A stretch of 64,000 nucleotides of DNA from an uncultured Candidatus Saccharibacteria bacterium (GTDB lineage Bacteria > Patescibacteriota > Minisyncoccia > Minisyncoccales > CAYVNG01), in the NCBI GenBank assembly GCA_964452875.1, contig CAYVNG010000002.1:1459-65458 (forward strand). The letters run 5' to 3'. Below the pieces are notes generated by a model. The model did not search any database, was not told the DNA's origin, and worked only from the letters and a program-made list of their open reading frames with translations. This document shows, one piece after another, positions 2,710-41,019 of this stretch. The translations under genes were made by a program, and so were the position numbers. Numbering within the stretch: position 1 is the first letter of the stretch; each line of letters begins with the position of its first letter.

Positions 2710-5121
2710 TCAACCCCTTTCGGGCGGATTTCCAGAACCCCGCTTCTTTAAGCTCAATATGGTCTTGATGACCGTGTCCGGATTCAAGGACATGCTCTCT
2801 ATACCTTCTTTCATCAAAAACTGAGCGAAATCCGGGAAATCGGAGGGAGCTTGGCCGCAGATTCCGCAGTACTTCTTTTTCTTCCTGCAGATCCTGATCA
2901 CCTCCCTTATCATCTCTTTGACGGCCTCGTTCTTTTCATCCCCGATCGGAGCCAACTTGGCGTTGTCCCTGTCTATCCCCAAAACCAGCTGAGTCAGGTC
3001 GTTTGAGCCAATGCTCATTCCGTCGAAAATCTCTAGGAATTGCTCTGCCAGGATGACATTGGAAGGAATTTCGCACATGACGTACGTTTTAAGCTCCTTG
3101 CCCAGGCCGTACTTCCTTATGAGGCTAACCACCTTCTTTCCTTCCTCGGGCGTCCTGCAGAAAGGAACCATTGCCGAAACGTTTCTCAAGCCGAAGACCT
3201 CCCTGACCCTTTTAATGGCCCTGCATTCCATCTGGAAGGCGGGTTTGAAAGCTTCGTCATAATATCTTGAAGCTCCCCTCCAGCCGATCATGGGATTCGA
3301 TTCTTCAGGCTCGAATTTCTTCCCTCCGACCAGAGAGGCGTATTCGTTGGTCTTGAAGTCAGAGAACCTCACTATCACCTCGTTCGGCCAAAAAGCGGCC
3401 GCGATCTGGCCTATGCCTTCGGCGAGCTCTTTGACGAAAAACTCCTTTTTGTCCCTGTGCTCAGCCGTTATTTCCTCTATTTCTTTCCTCAGCTTCTTGT
3501 CCTTGATCTTGTTGAAATGGTAAAGGGCCAGGGGATGGACCCTTATCTTGTCTGCGATTATGAATTCCTCGCGGGCAAGCCCCACTCCCTGGACCGGAAG
3601 GAAAGATGTCTTGAAAGCGGAATCCGGCGCCCCTATGTTGACCATTATCTTCGTTTTCAGCTTTGGGACTTCTTTCAAATCATACCTGTTTATCTTGAAA
3701 GGGATTTTTCCCGAATAGATCTTCCCGTCCAGGCCCTGGGTGCAGTCCACGCTTATCGTCTCCCCGTTCCTGAGGGTTTCGAAAACGCCTTTCACCCCGA
3801 CGATGGCAGGCACCCCTAATTCCCTGCTGACGATGGCCGCATGAGCGGTCTTGCCACCTTCTTCGGTGACGATGGCAGAAGCCATGCTCATCACTGGGAC
3901 CCAGTCGGGATCGGTCATCTTGGTCACCAGAACTTCCCCTTCCCTGAACTGGTTTATCTTTGAAACGTCTTGGATTATCCTCACCCTTCCCATTCCTATC
4001 TTGTCTCCGACCGCCACCCCTTTGAGGATGGGCTTCTTTTTCGTCTTAATGACGTATTCTTCGTAAAATCTTCCGCTCTTGATGGCGTGCACCGTTTCCG
4101 GCCTTGACTGGACTATGAAAAGCTTTCCCGTCCTGCCGTCCTTGGCCCACTCAAGGTCCTGAGGCTGCCATCTCCCCGCCTCCTTGGAATAGTGATCCTC
4201 TATCCTGAGCGCCCAGTCGGCCAAAGTCAGGATCTCCTTGTCCGTCAAGGAAAACTTCATCTGCTGAGAATCAGACACGTTCTGCTCTTTCAGCCCTCCG
4301 GAAGCTCCGTAAACGTATTTCCTGCTTTTCCTTCCCAAGTTCTTTACGATTATGGCTTCTTTTCCTTCCTTCAAAGTCGGTTTGAAAACGTAGAATTGGT
4401 CCGGAGTTATCTTCCCTTTCACTATCATCTCTCCGATTCCCCAGATGGAGTTTATCAAAATGACGTTCTTGAATCCTGTTTCCGTGTCCAAAGTGAACAT
4501 GATCCCGGAAGAAGCCAAATCCGACCTCACCATTTTCATCACCCCAACTGACAAGGCTATTTTCAGATGGTCGAACTTCTTTTCCTCCCGGTAGGAAATG
4601 GCTCTGTCCGTGAACAAGGAAGCCATGCATTTTTTGACAGCTTCCAGCAACGCCTCGCCTCCTGACACGTTCAAATAGGTTTCGTGCTGTCCGGCAAAAG
4701 AAGCCGAAGGCAGGTCTTCTGCGGTCGCAGACGACCTTACTGCAACGTCCGCCTCTTTTTGCCTGTATTCTTCGGAAAGCTTCTTATAGCTCTTCAAAAT
4801 GTCCCTTTCCAAATCCTTGGGAAAACTTCCTTTGAGGATGAGGGATCTCGCCTTTTCACCGGTTTTCTGCAGGCTCTCCAAATTCCCCTTTTTCATCTCA
4901 GAAAACGCTTTTTCCAGTTCCTTTTCTATCTTATTGGCCTTCAAATAGTATCTGTATCCCCGGGCCGTCAATGCAAACCCGTCAGGGACGTTCACTCCTT
5001 TTTTGGCCATTGCAGAATACATCTCTCCCAAGGAAGCGTTTTTTCCTCCCACCAGCTTCACGTCCTTCAAAGAAAGGCTTTTGAACCAAAGGATGTTTTT
5101 CCGGGAATTGCTTTTTTTCAT
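2710..5121 (-). CDS. ppsA: Phosphoenolpyruvate synthase (pyruvate, water dikinase)
   Basis: 803 aa. N-terminal VKLVGGKNASLGEM, swivel His motif GGKTAHAAIVSRELGVPAIVG, C-terminal PEP-binding barrel with GSNDLTQ. Confidence 0.9.
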   Translation of the reverse strand: MKKSNSRKNILWFKSLSLKDVKLVGGKNASLGEMYSAMAKKGVNVPDGFALTARGYRYYLKANKIEKELEKAFSEMKKGNLESLQKTGEKARSLILKGSFPKDLERDILKSYKKLSEEYRQKEADVAVRSSATAEDLPSASFAGQHETYLNVSGGEALLEAVKKCMASLFTDRAISYREEKKFDHLKIALSVGVMKMVRSDLASSGIMFTLDTETGFKNVILINSIWGIGEMIVKGKITPDQFYVFKPTLKEGKEAIIVKNLGRKSRKYVYGASGGLKEQNVSDSQQMKFSLTDKEILTLADWALRIEDHYSKEAGRWQPQDLEWAKDGRTGKLFIVQSRPETVHAIKSGRFYEEYVIKTKKKPILKGVAVGDKIGMGRVRIIQDVSKINQFREGEVLVTKMTDPDWVPVMSMASAIVTEEGGKTAHAAIVSRELGVPAIVGVKGVFETLRNGETISVDCTQGLDGKIYSGKIPFKINRYDLKEVPKLKTKIMVNIGAPDSAFKTSFLPVQGVGLAREEFIIADKIRVHPLALYHFNKIKDKKLRKEIEEITAEHRDKKEFFVKELAEGIGQIAAAFWPNEVIVRFSDFKTNEYASLVGGKKFEPEESNPMIGWRGASRYYDEAFKPAFQMECRAIKRVREVFGLRNVSAMVPFCRTPEEGKKVVSLIRKYGLGKELKTYVMCEIPSNVILAEQFLEIFDGMSIGSNDLTQLVLGIDRDNAKLAPIGDEKNEAVKEMIREVIRICRKKKKYCGICGQAPSDFPDFAQFLMKEGIESMSLNPDTVIKTILSLKKRGSGNPPERG

Positions 5122-38006: not shown

Positions 38007-38630
38007 TTAAATTACTGAAGGCTGCCCGGTTATGAAAAAATATGCGTATCGGCTCAGGTATCCTAGAAGCTCGAGCCCGAAGGTGAAAAGGAAAATCAAC
38101 AGGATGAGGAAGCCGTGCTGCTTTATGAAAAGCCTGAAACTCTGGAATCTTTCCGGCAGAAAACTAAAGAGGATATGGGATCCGTCCAAAGGAGGAATGG
38201 GGACAAGGTTGAAAAAGGCCCATAAAACGTTGTAAAAGACGACTATGGCGAAAAGTTCGGCCATGGCTCCGGGAAGTATCATAAACCTCACGGCAAAACC
38301 GAATATCAAGGCAAGGAGCAAGTTGGCAGCAGGACCAGCGATGGAAACCTTGAGGTTCCCCCATTTCTTGTCCCTGAAATTGAAAGGATTGACGGGAACC
38401 GGCTTTGCCATCCCGAAAACTACCCCCCATCCTGTAATCGCCCTGATGGCGAAAGTGAAAATCGGAAGGAATATGGTCCCGAAAGGATCAATGTGTTTCA
38501 AAGGATTCAAGGTGAGGCGGCCTTCGTTCTTTGCCGTCGGATCCCCCAGATGCAAAGCCATGCCGCCGTGGGCGACTTCATGTATGACTATCGAGAAGAA
38601 CAGAACGATCAGTGATGTCACAAGCGCCAT
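38007..38630 (-). CDS. Site-2 protease family (peptidase M50) membrane metalloprotease
   Basis: 207 aa, multi-TM. HEVAHG zinc motif, LNPLKHIDPFGT, PIPPLDGSH. Confidence 0.85.
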   Translation of the reverse strand: MALVTSLIVLFFSIVIHEVAHGGMALHLGDPTAKNEGRLTLNPLKHIDPFGTIFLPIFTFAIRAITGWGVVFGMAKPVPVNPFNFRDKKWGNLKVSIAGPAANLLLALIFGFAVRFMILPGAMAELFAIVVFYNVLWAFFNLVPIPPLDGSHILFSFLPERFQSFRLFIKQHGFLILLIFLFTFGLELLGYLSRYAYFFITGQPSVI

Positions 38631-38721: not shown

Positions 38722-38910
38722 ATGAGCAGAATCTGCCAAATTTGCCAAAAAAGGGGGAGAATGACCGGCAGCAGGAAAAAGCTGATGAGCAGATACAATC
38801 CCACCAACAAGACGAGGAAGCATCCGAACCTCCAGTGGGTCACTTTGACTTCCGGCCAAAGAGTTAAGGCCTGCGCTAAATGCATAAAGCGCCTCGGGAG
38901 AAAAAAATAG
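38722..38910 (+). CDS. rpmB: 50S ribosomal protein L28 (Cys-containing variant)
   Basis: MSRICQICQKRGRMTGSRKK...PNLQWV...CAKCIKRL. Start set at ATG 38722; the track uses an upstream TTG at 38710. Confidence 0.85.
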   Translation: MSRICQICQKRGRMTGSRKKLMSRYNPTNKTRKHPNLQWVTLTSGQRVKACAKCIKRLGRKK

Positions 38911-38921
38911 TTCATAACAAT

Positions 38922-38993
38922 CGGGGTGTAGTATAACGGCCATTATTTGCCCTTGGGGTGGGTAAGAACCGGGTTCAACTCCCGGCACCCCGA
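38922..38993 (+). tRNA. tRNA-Pro (anticodon GGG)
   Basis: Hand-folded cloverleaf. Acceptor CGGGGTG/CACCCCG, anticodon stem TGCCC/GGGTA with loop TTGGGGT, T arm CCGGG-TTCAACT-CCCGG, discriminator A. CCA is not encoded. Confidence 0.85.
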
Positions 38994-39001
38994 CAAACGA
39001 A

Positions 39002-39033
39002 CCAAAAAACAGCAGTCATCTGCTGTTTTTTGG
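39002..39033. terminator. Bidirectional intrinsic terminator
   Basis: Perfect palindrome CCAAAAAACAGCAG-TCAT-CTGCTGTTTTTTGG. Serves rpmB/tRNA-Pro on the plus strand and the candidate sRNA on the minus strand. Confidence 0.8.
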
Positions 39034-39172
39034 TTGCCCTGCTTTTTTTCTCGAGAATTCTTCTGGAAAATATTTCTTGTGGGTGCCCGCATTGCGCCGC
39101 CACGGCGGAACAAGATATAAGGCTCCCGTTTTGATATTTTGTCCCAGAATCTCAAGAAGATCAAACAGGGCT
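39002..39172 (-). ncRNA. Candidate structured small RNA (~170 nt, rod-like; class unknown, 6S-like architecture is only a hypothesis)
   Basis: Bounded by an extended -10 promoter and the terminator above. The 5' arm (39144-39171) pairs with the 3' arm (39036-39066): GCCCUGUUU/AAGCAGGGC, CUUGAGA/UCUCGAG, UUCUGG/CCAGAA, AAAAUAU/AUAUUUU. The apex is GC-rich. The only ORF has no SD. Confidence 0.45.
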
Positions 39173-39178
39173 GATTCC

Positions 39179-39187
39179 ATTATACCA
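39179..39187 (-). promoter_or_regulatory. Extended -10 promoter element (TGGTATAAT)
   Basis: Minus strand reads TGG-TATAAT, 22 nt downstream of the ndk stop. A TTGACC lies upstream but at only 11-nt spacing, so no canonical -35. Confidence 0.5.
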
Positions 39188-39208
39188 CACGGAGCGGTCA
39201 AGCAAAAA

Positions 39209-39796
39209 CTAGAACATTATGTCCTCTTCCGCCCTCTTGTAGTCGTGTATGTCTTCCGGAGAGAACCAAAACTGTATCTCATGAGTGGATTCCTGCTCTG
39301 TCTCGGAAGCGTGGATGATATTGTGAATCGCCCTTTTATCCCTGTTGGCCGCGGTTGCGTCGTCAACCGAAAAGTCCCCCCTGATGGTCCCCATTTCGGC
39401 CTGGGAAGGCATGGTCGGGCCGGCTATCTTCCTGACCATGTCCCTGGCATGAATCCCCTTGACCACCATTTTAACCACCGGGCCCGAAGTCATATAGGAA
39501 ATGAGCCAGGATCTGACCTGCTTTCCTATTTCCAAAGGATCGTCTGAACCGAATTCATCTTTAACGTCGATACCGTAGTCCTGGTAGTTCTTCATCGTCT
39601 TTCCACCGATTTTCCTGATCCATTCCTCGTCTTTCGGGTAATGCTCGTCTATCTGATCTGGCTTGGCATGGACCATTCCAAGAGCTATTATCTTGAGCCC
39701 CCTCATTTCTATTCTGGAGATTATTTCCCCGACCAGCCCCCTTTTCACTCCGTCGGGCTTTACCAAAACCAATGTTTTTTCTTCGCTCGGGTGCAT
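39209..39796 (-). CDS. ndk: Nucleoside diphosphate kinase (long form with insertion)
   Basis: TLVLVKPDGVKRGLVGEIISRIE...HASET (active-site His context). Start set at MHPSEEKT; the track ORF extends to 39844. Confidence 0.85.
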   Translation of the reverse strand: MHPSEEKTLVLVKPDGVKRGLVGEIISRIEMRGLKIIALGMVHAKPDQIDEHYPKDEEWIRKIGGKTMKNYQDYGIDVKDEFGSDDPLEIGKQVRSWLISYMTSGPVVKMVVKGIHARDMVRKIAGPTMPSQAEMGTIRGDFSVDDATAANRDKRAIHNIIHASETEQESTHEIQFWFSPEDIHDYKRAEEDIMF

Positions 39797-39898
39797 ATTG
39801 GAAGATCGCACAGACGGGAACGCGGATCCTTCAGGATCCCTCATCCCTGCATATGCCTATCTGGTTAAATTTCCTTCTTTATACCATCCTCGGCCTTC

Positions 39899-40762
39899 CT
39901 AATCAAGCCAGACTTCCTTTCCGTCGCTTGCGAACCTGACATCCCCCTGCAGATCGGTCCTCAAAACATCAATGCCTTCCAAAGCTTCAAGGGCGTCTTG
40001 ACTGGGATGGCCGTACGAATTGTCCTTGCCGCAGGAGATCACCGCGAACTCCGGGGAAACCGCTTCGACGAATTCCCTGCTTGTCGAGGTCCTGCTTCCG
40101 TGGTGCCCCGCCTTCAAGACGTCGGAATCGACTTCCGCCCCGAGCGAAATAATCTGCTTTTCCGCTGACTGGTAAGCGTCCCCTGTGAAAATGAAGGAAA
40201 TGTCCTTGTAAACGAGCCTGGCGATTATCGAGGTATTGTTGCTGTCCTCCATTTCCATTCCTTCCTGGCTTTCAAAAGGATGGAGAACGTAAAGGAATTC
40301 ATAAGGCTGGCCGAATCCTATCTTCAATCCTGATTCTGCGATATGCAGATTCGCCCCCTCCTCTCTTATCAGCTTCAGCCACTCTCTATAATCGGCGGTA
40401 TCCCTGACAACGCCGGTCCACAAGACGTTCTCCACCTCGTAACTCTTCAGAACTTCAATAAGGCCGGCCATATGGTCTTTTTCAGGATGAGTGAGGATGA
40501 CAAGGTCGATCGTCCTGTCCCAGAAAGGCATTTCTTCTGCCAGCTTCTCGAGCAAAGAAGAGTCCGGTCCGCCGTCAATCAGAACTTGGCGGCCTTCAGG
40601 AGTTTTAATGAAGGCTGCGTCTCCCTGTCCGACGTCGAAAAAAACGACCTCCAGTTTCCCGGGCCGGGCCAGATCAAAAGCCGCGGCTGAAACGAAGACA
40701 TCTAAAAAAAGAAGAAATCCCAGGATAATTAAAGATTTTCTTTCAGGCATATGGCGCTTCAT
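39899..40762 (-). CDS. ComEC/Rec2-type metallo-beta-lactamase domain protein, membrane anchored
   Basis: 287 aa. N-terminal TM helix, VVFFDVGQGDAAFI and LTHPEKDH metal motifs, SYGHP near the C-terminus. Confidence 0.8.
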   Translation of the reverse strand: MKRHMPERKSLIILGFLLFLDVFVSAAAFDLARPGKLEVVFFDVGQGDAAFIKTPEGRQVLIDGGPDSSLLEKLAEEMPFWDRTIDLVILTHPEKDHMAGLIEVLKSYEVENVLWTGVVRDTADYREWLKLIREEGANLHIAESGLKIGFGQPYEFLYVLHPFESQEGMEMEDSNNTSIIARLVYKDISFIFTGDAYQSAEKQIISLGAEVDSDVLKAGHHGSRTSTSREFVEAVSPEFAVISCGKDNSYGHPSQDALEALEGIDVLRTDLQGDVRFASDGKEVWLD

Positions 40763-40857: not shown

Positions 40858-41019
40858 TTACTTTTTTCCCAGAATCCTGAACATCTTCGTTCCGCATACA
40901 GGGCAGGTTCCGGTCGAAGCTCTCCTTTCCACTCCGCCCTTTCCTTTCATGGCGACTTCTTTCTCGCCCTGCATTTCCTGCTTCTTTTTGCATTTTACGC
41001 AATAGCCTACTGTGGCCAT
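40858..41019 (-). CDS. Small zinc-ribbon protein (DUF5679-like)
   Basis: Hand translation: MATVGYCVKCKKKQEMQGEKEVAMKGKGGVERRASTGTCPVCGTKMFRILGKK, then TAA. CxxC...CxxC pattern, 53 aa, below the ORF-track cutoff. Confidence 0.65.
   Translation of the reverse strand: MATVGYCVKCKKKQEMQGEKEVAMKGKGGVERRASTGTCPVCGTKMFRILGKK

Follow-up and report, generated by a model that had tools for sequence, protein, structure and literature searches.

Directly downstream of ndk, a stretch of 64,000 nucleotides (nt) from a Patescibacteria (Parcubacteria/Paceibacteria-type) bacterium (hereafter the window; all coordinates are positions in it) carries a short predicted transcription unit, read on the minus strand, that specifies a rod-shaped RNA of 136 nt. 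The sequence and the fold place the rod between G39171 and C39036, with its two halves mutually paired. The comparative analysis in this study makes it very probable that this element is a compact, divergent 6S RNA (ssrS), of which the expression and the binding to polymerase are putative. The identification follows from the invariant blocks and the architecture of the element, which fall on those of the Rfam 6S/SsrS model (RF00013), together with recurrent significant matches of its relatives to this model.

Relatives were collected by a search with the Ndk protein, with one genome per species, which gave 40 Patescibacteria loci. The closest Ndk match in this set was found in a Candidatus Nealsonbacteria metagenome-assembled genome (77% identity). 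The closest relatives have a recognisably homologous element directly downstream of ndk, each with its own TTGACT-16/17-TAnAAT promoter. The core shared by these elements can be written as GGGA-GYC-YUAUAUC-[hairpin]-UGC-GRC-A-CCCAC. An IUPAC pattern of this core occurs in at least 119 stretches in metagenome contigs, and homologues were found in over 120 Patescibacteria genome and metagenome loci. Two covariance models were built, R1 from 15 sequences of a subgroup that we call W-like and the broader R2 from 83 sequences. With R1, the window yields a single copy (39030-39177, minus strand), which scores 133.4 bits (E = 4e-28), and R2 gives 117.8 bits; judged by sequence, the window copy is a member of the family. 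At E ≤ 0.001, R1 recovered 83 copies in 94 sources, and the two models together placed a copy within 4 kb of ndk in 25 of the 40 species loci. The median length of the rod in the family is 134 nt.

The relation of the family to 6S RNA was analysed in permissive Rfam scans of 40 short homologous loci. RF00013 was the only Rfam family that recurred on the element, and it matched seven of the 40 members, each time on the expected strand and over the expected span. The scores were 43.8 bits (L156), 27.1 bits (L072), 25.2 bits (L108), 24.1 bits (L063), 22.1 bits (L061), 21.9 bits (L142) and 20.8 bits (L118), to be compared with a gathering score of 46.4 bits, which is an annotation rule and not a biological property. 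An earlier note on this DNA had put forward 6S RNA as a tentative idea, and these matches, the best of them at 43.8 bits, support it. The L156 match has an E-value of 1.3e-5 in a 54-kb search and 7.5e-8 locally, and it spans the whole model (positions 1-187), closing stem included. This locus shares the core pattern of the window copy and scores 44.3 bits with R1. The chain that leads from the window copy to the family, and from the family to 6S RNA, is therefore solid, although the window copy by itself is not matched by RF00013.

The conserved blocks point in the same direction. The consensus of RF00013 contains the blocks '...CCgAaaauuuuuauaauaGGGagcccucuuU...agagggcaCCCACCUggaAca...', and the family motifs GGGAG.C and CACCCACCU coincide with GGG and CCCACCU, which are written there in upper case (most conserved). 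The unpaired A's of the family fall on unpaired positions of the model, and the covarying G.C helix and the A/U-rich strand on the 5' side of the bubble also correspond. The window copy has GGGAGCC...GGCACCCAC; its apical 5' strand matches 'GGGagccc' and the 3' side matches 'gggcaCCCACCUgg' of the 6S consensus. In 56 diverse sequences, GGGA..C and UGCGG...ACCCAC are invariant, and UAUAUC is invariant or nearly so. The GGG of the apical helix is the same in all 83 homologues, and the pairs that follow it covary. The Patescibacteria RNA thus shares with 6S RNA a rod composed of a closing stem, a central bubble and an apical stem-loop, a promoter and a terminator of its own, the arrangement GGG-A-G.C.../...G.C-A-CCCACCU(GG) apical to the bubble, and an A/U-rich 5' bubble strand. 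It differs in its synteny with ndk and tRNA-Pro(GGG), in its short arm with the UAUAUC/UGC loop, and in its scores below the cut-off. To our knowledge, no 6S gene has been described in such an ndk/tRNA-Pro setting.

The structure was analysed by folding and by comparison. The rod alone (39034-39175) folds with -54.4 kcal/mol versus -34.2 ± 3.6 kcal/mol in dinucleotide shuffles (z = -5.6; 0 of 200 shuffles were as good), and the rod plus its terminator gives z = -9.5. In an alignment of the 83 homologues, which was fitted to the model, a procedure that favours structure, 91.8% of the cells are standard pairs, versus 63.3 ± 0.7% with shuffled partners and 36-55% with partners slid by one to three columns. 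The covariation score in this alignment is 0.674 versus 0.192 in shuffles. Covariation in relatives had been named in the earlier note as a check of its proposal, and compensatory changes, with both sides altered, are present in 28 of the 32 base pairs. An independent alignment of nine sequences by MAFFT and RNAalifold gave compensatory changes in 17 of 27 pairs. The RNA structure is real and conserved, and is not a chance hairpin.

About 300 of the 2430 paired cells in the 83-sequence alignment are G-U. Read on the opposite strand, G-U pairs would become A/C mismatches, which identifies the ndk strand as the one that folds. The promoters and terminators are on this strand as well. The plus strand was considered as the folded strand and rejected: its fold is weaker (-50.7 versus -54.4 kcal/mol on the minus strand), and it is contradicted by the G-U pairs and by the orientation of the promoter.

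In the minimum free energy (MFE) fold of the window RNA, GCCCUGUUU pairs with AAGCAGGGC, UCUUGAGA with UCUCGAGA, UUCUGG with CCAGAA, and AAUAU with AUAUU. All four arm helices listed earlier from the sequence are therefore in the MFE fold, the last of them as AAUAU/AUAUU. This last helix is not family-wide: it is found in the window copy only, whereas in the relatives the bubble is open, with about 15 nt in its 5' strand and about 13 nt in its 3' strand. The closing stem GCCCUGUUU/AAGCAGGGC (39171-39163 with 39044-39036) has compensatory changes in 8 of 8 helix 1 pairs, with 93% of the cells paired. A middle helix (39158-39150 with 39056-39048) is present in the MFE fold; in the family it is backed only by per-sequence folds, since the MAFFT arm alignments are out of register there. 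Next to the bubble, the helix UUCUGGG/UCCAGAA (39149-39143 with 39067-39061) shows compensatory changes in 7 of 7 helix 3 pairs, and it corresponds to the P2 or 'downstream' helix of 6S RNA.

The 5' bubble strand of the window copy, ACAAAAUAUCAAAAC (39142-39128), aligns to the 5' bubble of Rfam 6S. In the family this strand has a median length of 15 nt, is A/U-rich and opens with a conserved A-C-A/U-A. Apical to the bubble, comparative data support a helix of eight positions with an A-A mismatch, GGG-A-GCCU/GGGC-A-CCC (GGGAGCCU/GGGCACCC; 39127-39120 with 39088-39081), and not the UCUUGU/ACAAGA pairing that had been proposed for the apex, which is not the conserved one. The helix is followed by an asymmetric internal loop, UAUAUCU on one side (39119-39113) and UGC on the other (39091-39089), which is specific to the family and conserved in it. 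The rod ends in a variable hairpin (39113-39092) with a CGUG loop in the window and compensatory changes in 6 of 6 pairs. Across loci, this hairpin between the conserved halves is free in sequence and in length (14-44 nt), stays a hairpin in simple short forms, and carries variable apical loops of the YNNG type. The 3' bubble strand, ACAAGAAAUAUUU (39080-39068), starts with the AC of CCCAC; its median length in the family is 13 nt.

Of 97 unique relatives, 60 have a hairpin directly after CCCAC on the 3' bubble strand. The sides of this hairpin covary from one lineage to the next, as in CCUAGA/UCUAGG, CUUGGC/GCCAAA, GUGGCA/UGCCAC and CUGAGC/GCUCGG. The hairpin and the neighbouring helix are separate structures in some lineages. 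In the W-like subgroup, the 3' half of the hairpin is the 3' strand of the bubble-proximal helix. Because the two structures share this strand, the hairpin in the W-like subgroup could form only when the helix opens.

The layout of the locus is that of a separate gene. Read on the minus strand, the stop codon of ndk (TAG, 39211-39209) is followed after a gap of 21 nt by an extended -10 promoter element, TGGTATAAT (39187-39179; TG at 39187-39186 and TATAAT at 39184-39179), from the position of which a transcription start at about 39173-39171 is predicted. The 136-nt rod comes next and, after two A's, a perfect palindromic intrinsic terminator (39033-39002) with a 14-bp stem, a 4-nt loop, an A-run on one flank and a T-run (U-run in the RNA) on the other. 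A primary transcript that includes the terminator would be about 165-170 nt long. The extended -10 element, the palindromic terminator and the arm pairings, all of which had been pointed out in the earlier note, are indeed at these positions on the minus strand, and its description of a promoter-to-terminator small RNA unit is borne out by the relatives. A TAnnnT hexamer precedes the closing stem in 64 of 80 homologues, with 3-12 nt between its end and the stem (mode 7 nt, n = 34); a TG extension is present in 26 of these 64, and a -35 element can be recognised in 19. The rod of the homologues is then followed by a hairpin-plus-U terminator, or by a U-run directly after the closing stem. In some loci, such as L009, there is also a terminator between ndk and the promoter of the RNA. 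Judged by sequence, the RNA is a stand-alone transcription unit with a predicted promoter and a predicted terminator of its own.

Several results weigh against the identification as 6S RNA. The window copy gave no RF00013 match even at E ≤ 10 in a local scan of 38850-39350, so that the Rfam comparison suggested in the earlier note gives 6S matches for seven of 40 members of the family and none for the window copy. None of the members in the 40 loci reaches the 46.4-bit cut-off, the best being at 43.8 bits. When R1 and R2 were run with filters off on the ssrS locus of E. coli K-12 (L160), ssrS was not found. The rod, at about 134-136 nt, is short compared with about 160-200 nt for described 6S RNAs (PMC8414754, PMC8876501). 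Nothing equivalent to the conserved UAUAUC/UGC loop exists in the 6S consensus, whose helix runs on at this place, and the apical arm may be too short for a '-35-like' contact. Two further points concern the window copy: it lacks the hairpin after CCCAC, with CAAGAA in place of CCUGGA, and five A-U pairs (AAUAU/AUAUU) partly close its bubble in the MFE fold. Scans of nine related loci at gathering thresholds gave nothing but tRNAs. A scan of the whole window at gathering gave no match, yet this negative is untrustworthy because the scan also missed tRNA-Pro, which scores 49.5 bits against a cut-off of 29.

There is another possible interpretation of these results. The element might be a lineage-specific structured small RNA with a different job, for instance a ribonucleoprotein scaffold recognised through UAUAUC/UGC, and its likeness to 6S RNA would then be convergent, or the RNA would be derived from 6S RNA with a new function. 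Among the features specific to the family, the asymmetric loop is the best conserved, and its absence from the 6S consensus speaks for this interpretation, as do the length below that of known 6S RNAs, the failure of the reciprocal searches with E. coli ssrS and the lack of an Rfam match for the window copy. Against it stands the full-length RF00013 match of L156 (1-187; E = 7.5e-8 locally), which is not isolated, as RF00013 recurs in seven members. Moreover, the invariant blocks of the family lie on the invariant blocks of 6S RNA in the same structural position, and no other Rfam family recurs. We therefore regard a different job as improbable, and prefer the identification as 6S RNA.

The position next to ndk raises the question of whether the element could instead act in cis as part of the 3' untranslated region of the ndk mRNA, for instance as a stabiliser or a processing signal. 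The linkage is certainly strong. Of 125 loci that bear the core pattern, 80 have ndk directly upstream on the same strand, even at 30-45% Ndk identity, and in the window no terminator was found between the ndk stop codon and the promoter of the RNA, where there is no room for one. tRNA-Pro(GGG) lies at most 1.5 kb downstream in 28 of the 125 loci. On the other hand, 64 of 80 homologues have the -10 element at a constant spacing to the closing stem, and in some loci, such as L009, a terminator separates ndk from the promoter. No ndk was found in 28 of the 125 loci, all with at least 1 kb of upstream sequence. In L022 (1469-1604) and L027 (4956-5090), the 6S-like gene adjoins ndk on the opposite strand, which shows that the linkage survives inversion. 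Because of the ndk-less loci and the opposite-strand cases, the linkage between ndk and the RNA, strong as it is, is not obligatory. We therefore regard an element of the ndk mRNA as very improbable. In the window, part of the 6S pool probably comes from ndk read-through, since there is no terminator between ndk and the 6S promoter.

A protein-coding function is hardly credible. An open reading frame (ORF) of 61 amino acids that starts with TTG, or of 54 amino acids, does exist at 39016-39201. It has no Shine-Dalgarno sequence, however, and its stop codon is inside the terminator. Among 97 unique homologues, the three frames are free of stops in only 7, 9 or 11, and the core lengths (49, 50, 53, 54 nt and so on) differ by numbers that are not multiples of three. 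The substitutions track base-pair covariation, and there was no Pfam match for the ORF. The claim that the unit is non-coding, made earlier from the window alone, thus holds in the family, where no reading frame is conserved.

Equally remote is a mobile or repeated palindrome that folds as a hairpin, of the repetitive extragenic palindromic or miniature inverted-repeat transposable element kind, for the long imperfect inverted repeat is intergenic as such an element would be, while a repeat search and R1 found no second copy in the 64 kb, the related loci have one copy each, the syntenic position is conserved, and the substitutions are compensatory in place of copy-to-copy identity.

Bacterial signal recognition particle (SRP) RNA (4.5S) was also tried as a candidate and rejected: no SRP match was obtained at E ≤ 10 in the window region or in the 40 loci, and the variable apical loops are of the YNNG type and not the GNRA tetraloop of SRP domain IV. 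In the permissive local Rfam scan of 38850-39350, neither SRP RNA nor transfer-messenger RNA (tmRNA) nor RNase P was matched.

The putative 6S RNA of Patescibacteria can be compared with several known RNAs. E. coli ssrS (NC_000913 3055983-3056165) has the same overall design; it differs in its length of 183 nt and in its neighbours, which are zapA and fau. Its sequence departs from the GGGAGCC/CACCCACC blocks. The 6S RNA of Aquifex aeolicus, an organism with a small genome, is about 160 nt long and among the shortest described. It resembles the Patescibacteria family in being compact and is still longer. As in 6S-1 of B. subtilis, many of the Patescibacteria relatives have a small hairpin on the 3' side of the bubble that is predicted to be pre-formed in the free RNA; 6S-1, however, is about 190 nt long with long arms, whereas the Patescibacteria RNA is short and the window copy lacks this hairpin. 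A second likeness to E. coli is found in the W-like subgroup (for example in L009, L066 and L101), where the bubble-proximal helix has a 3' strand (UCCGG/UCUAG) with which CCUGGA on the 3' side of the bubble can pair. Such pairing resembles the E. coli hairpin that is formed after the product RNA opens the helix (PMC8876501). Ms1 of actinobacteria is likewise a 6S-like rod that binds RNA polymerase, but its target is the core enzyme and not the holoenzyme, its length is about double, and the 6S sequence blocks are missing from it (PMC9130861). Nothing here points to Ms1.

6S RNA mimics an open promoter and occupies the holoenzyme with the housekeeping sigma factor (PMC8876501, PMC8414754). If the Patescibacteria RNA acts in the same way, the rod would, as an open-promoter mimic, occupy the active-site channel of the RNA polymerase holoenzyme that contains the housekeeping sigma factor (PMC8876501). 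A '-10-like' contact would be provided by the 3' bubble strand together with the CCCAC(CUGG) junction, and polymerase would be sequestered when nucleotides are scarce. Upon a rise in nucleoside triphosphates (NTP), polymerase would use the 5' bubble strand and the helix next to it as the template of a short product RNA. The product RNA predicted for the window copy is 5'-GUCCCAGAAUCUCA, with its start opposite C39141, a position that was chosen because a pyrimidine is conserved there. Synthesis of the product RNA would unzip the bubble-proximal helix, upon which the RNA would refold and polymerase would be released. In E. coli, a hairpin forms during product RNA synthesis and drives the release (PMC8876501).

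How the short rod could suffice for this cycle is a separate matter. A truncated B. subtilis 6S-1, which consists of the bubble and two short arms, completes the cycle in vitro, with an affinity about 10-fold lower (PMC8876501). Since the truncated form still works in vitro, a natural 6S RNA with a shortened arm is plausible, and length is a typical and not a defining property of the 6S family. It is conceivable, although we consider it rather doubtful, that the element is a natural minimal 6S RNA of ~135 nt in which the '-35-like' arm has been replaced by a short arm with the UAUAUC/UGC loop, serving as a new contact with polymerase or sigma or as a built-in kink, and in which the linkage to ndk couples the supply of NTP to the NTP-triggered release.

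On its far side, the unit meets a convergent gene. tRNA-Pro(GGG) is located at 38922-38994 on the plus strand (49.5 bits in the local Rfam scan), and the palindrome lies 7 nt past it. The palindrome looks like a shared bidirectional terminator that would end the 6S unit on the minus strand and could end tRNA-Pro on the plus strand. It is flanked by an A-run and a T-run, and therefore both convergent genes can be terminated there. On the near side, ndk itself (39209-39844, minus strand) was identified by Pfam NDK (E = 2.9e-36). Its protein has 195-211 amino acids, and Pfam NDK matched it in two stretches, the best of which covers residues 112-199 and profile positions 58-135. Ndk proteins are typically about 140-150 amino acids long. 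The match in two stretches implies an insertion of roughly 40-50 amino acids in the middle of the domain, which is conserved in this lineage, since relatives align over the full 195 amino acids. The other neighbours identified by Pfam, all on the minus strand, are a metallo-beta-lactamase-fold protein (Lactamase_B, 39899-40762), a 53-amino-acid DUF5679 zinc-ribbon-like protein (40858-41019) and a peptidase M50 family protein (38007-38630).

Some of the related loci showed further features around the 6S-like gene. In the closest genome (L001), about 270 nt of nested palindromic repeats with units such as TCGGAT lie between ndk and the 6S promoter (4586-4850), and an extra hairpin is inserted into the 3' strand of the closing stem (about 4985-5025). 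In L005 (4796-5510), L007 (4829-5440) and part of L113, a second strong promoter (TTGACA-17-TATAAT) is found right after the 6S gene. The unit that it heads is about 650 nt long, GC-rich and ORF-poor, starts with a boxA-like GTTCTTTAC and ends with a hairpin-plus-T terminator. This unit gave no Rfam, tRNA, tmRNA or ribosomal RNA match and is not present in the window; it may be a large unclassified non-coding RNA. A similarly placed unit of different sequence occurs in L002-L004, where the contigs end shortly beyond it. L145 has a partial tmRNA match (3969-4013; E = 0.0011) to the 3' end of the model; it is located where the contig ends, at a distance of about 1.4 kb from the 6S-like gene.

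The 6S RNA family is well known, and the compact form in Patescibacteria is a new member or sub-family of it, which is useful for annotation and not surprising. In the literature searched, there was no paper that links 6S RNA with Patescibacteria, the candidate phyla radiation or Parcubacteria. The Rfam cut-off misses the whole sub-family, with the result that these genomes are annotated without ssrS; adding sequences of the family to the 6S seed would fix this gap. A natural 6S RNA of ~135 nt, if it is one, would be a useful minimal model for structures, and a natural test of the sufficiency of short arms that has been seen in vitro. Bacteria of the candidate phyla radiation have tiny genomes and few recognisable regulators. 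If the RNA is a conserved 6S RNA, these bacteria would have kept a global, nutrient-linked brake on their housekeeping RNA polymerase.

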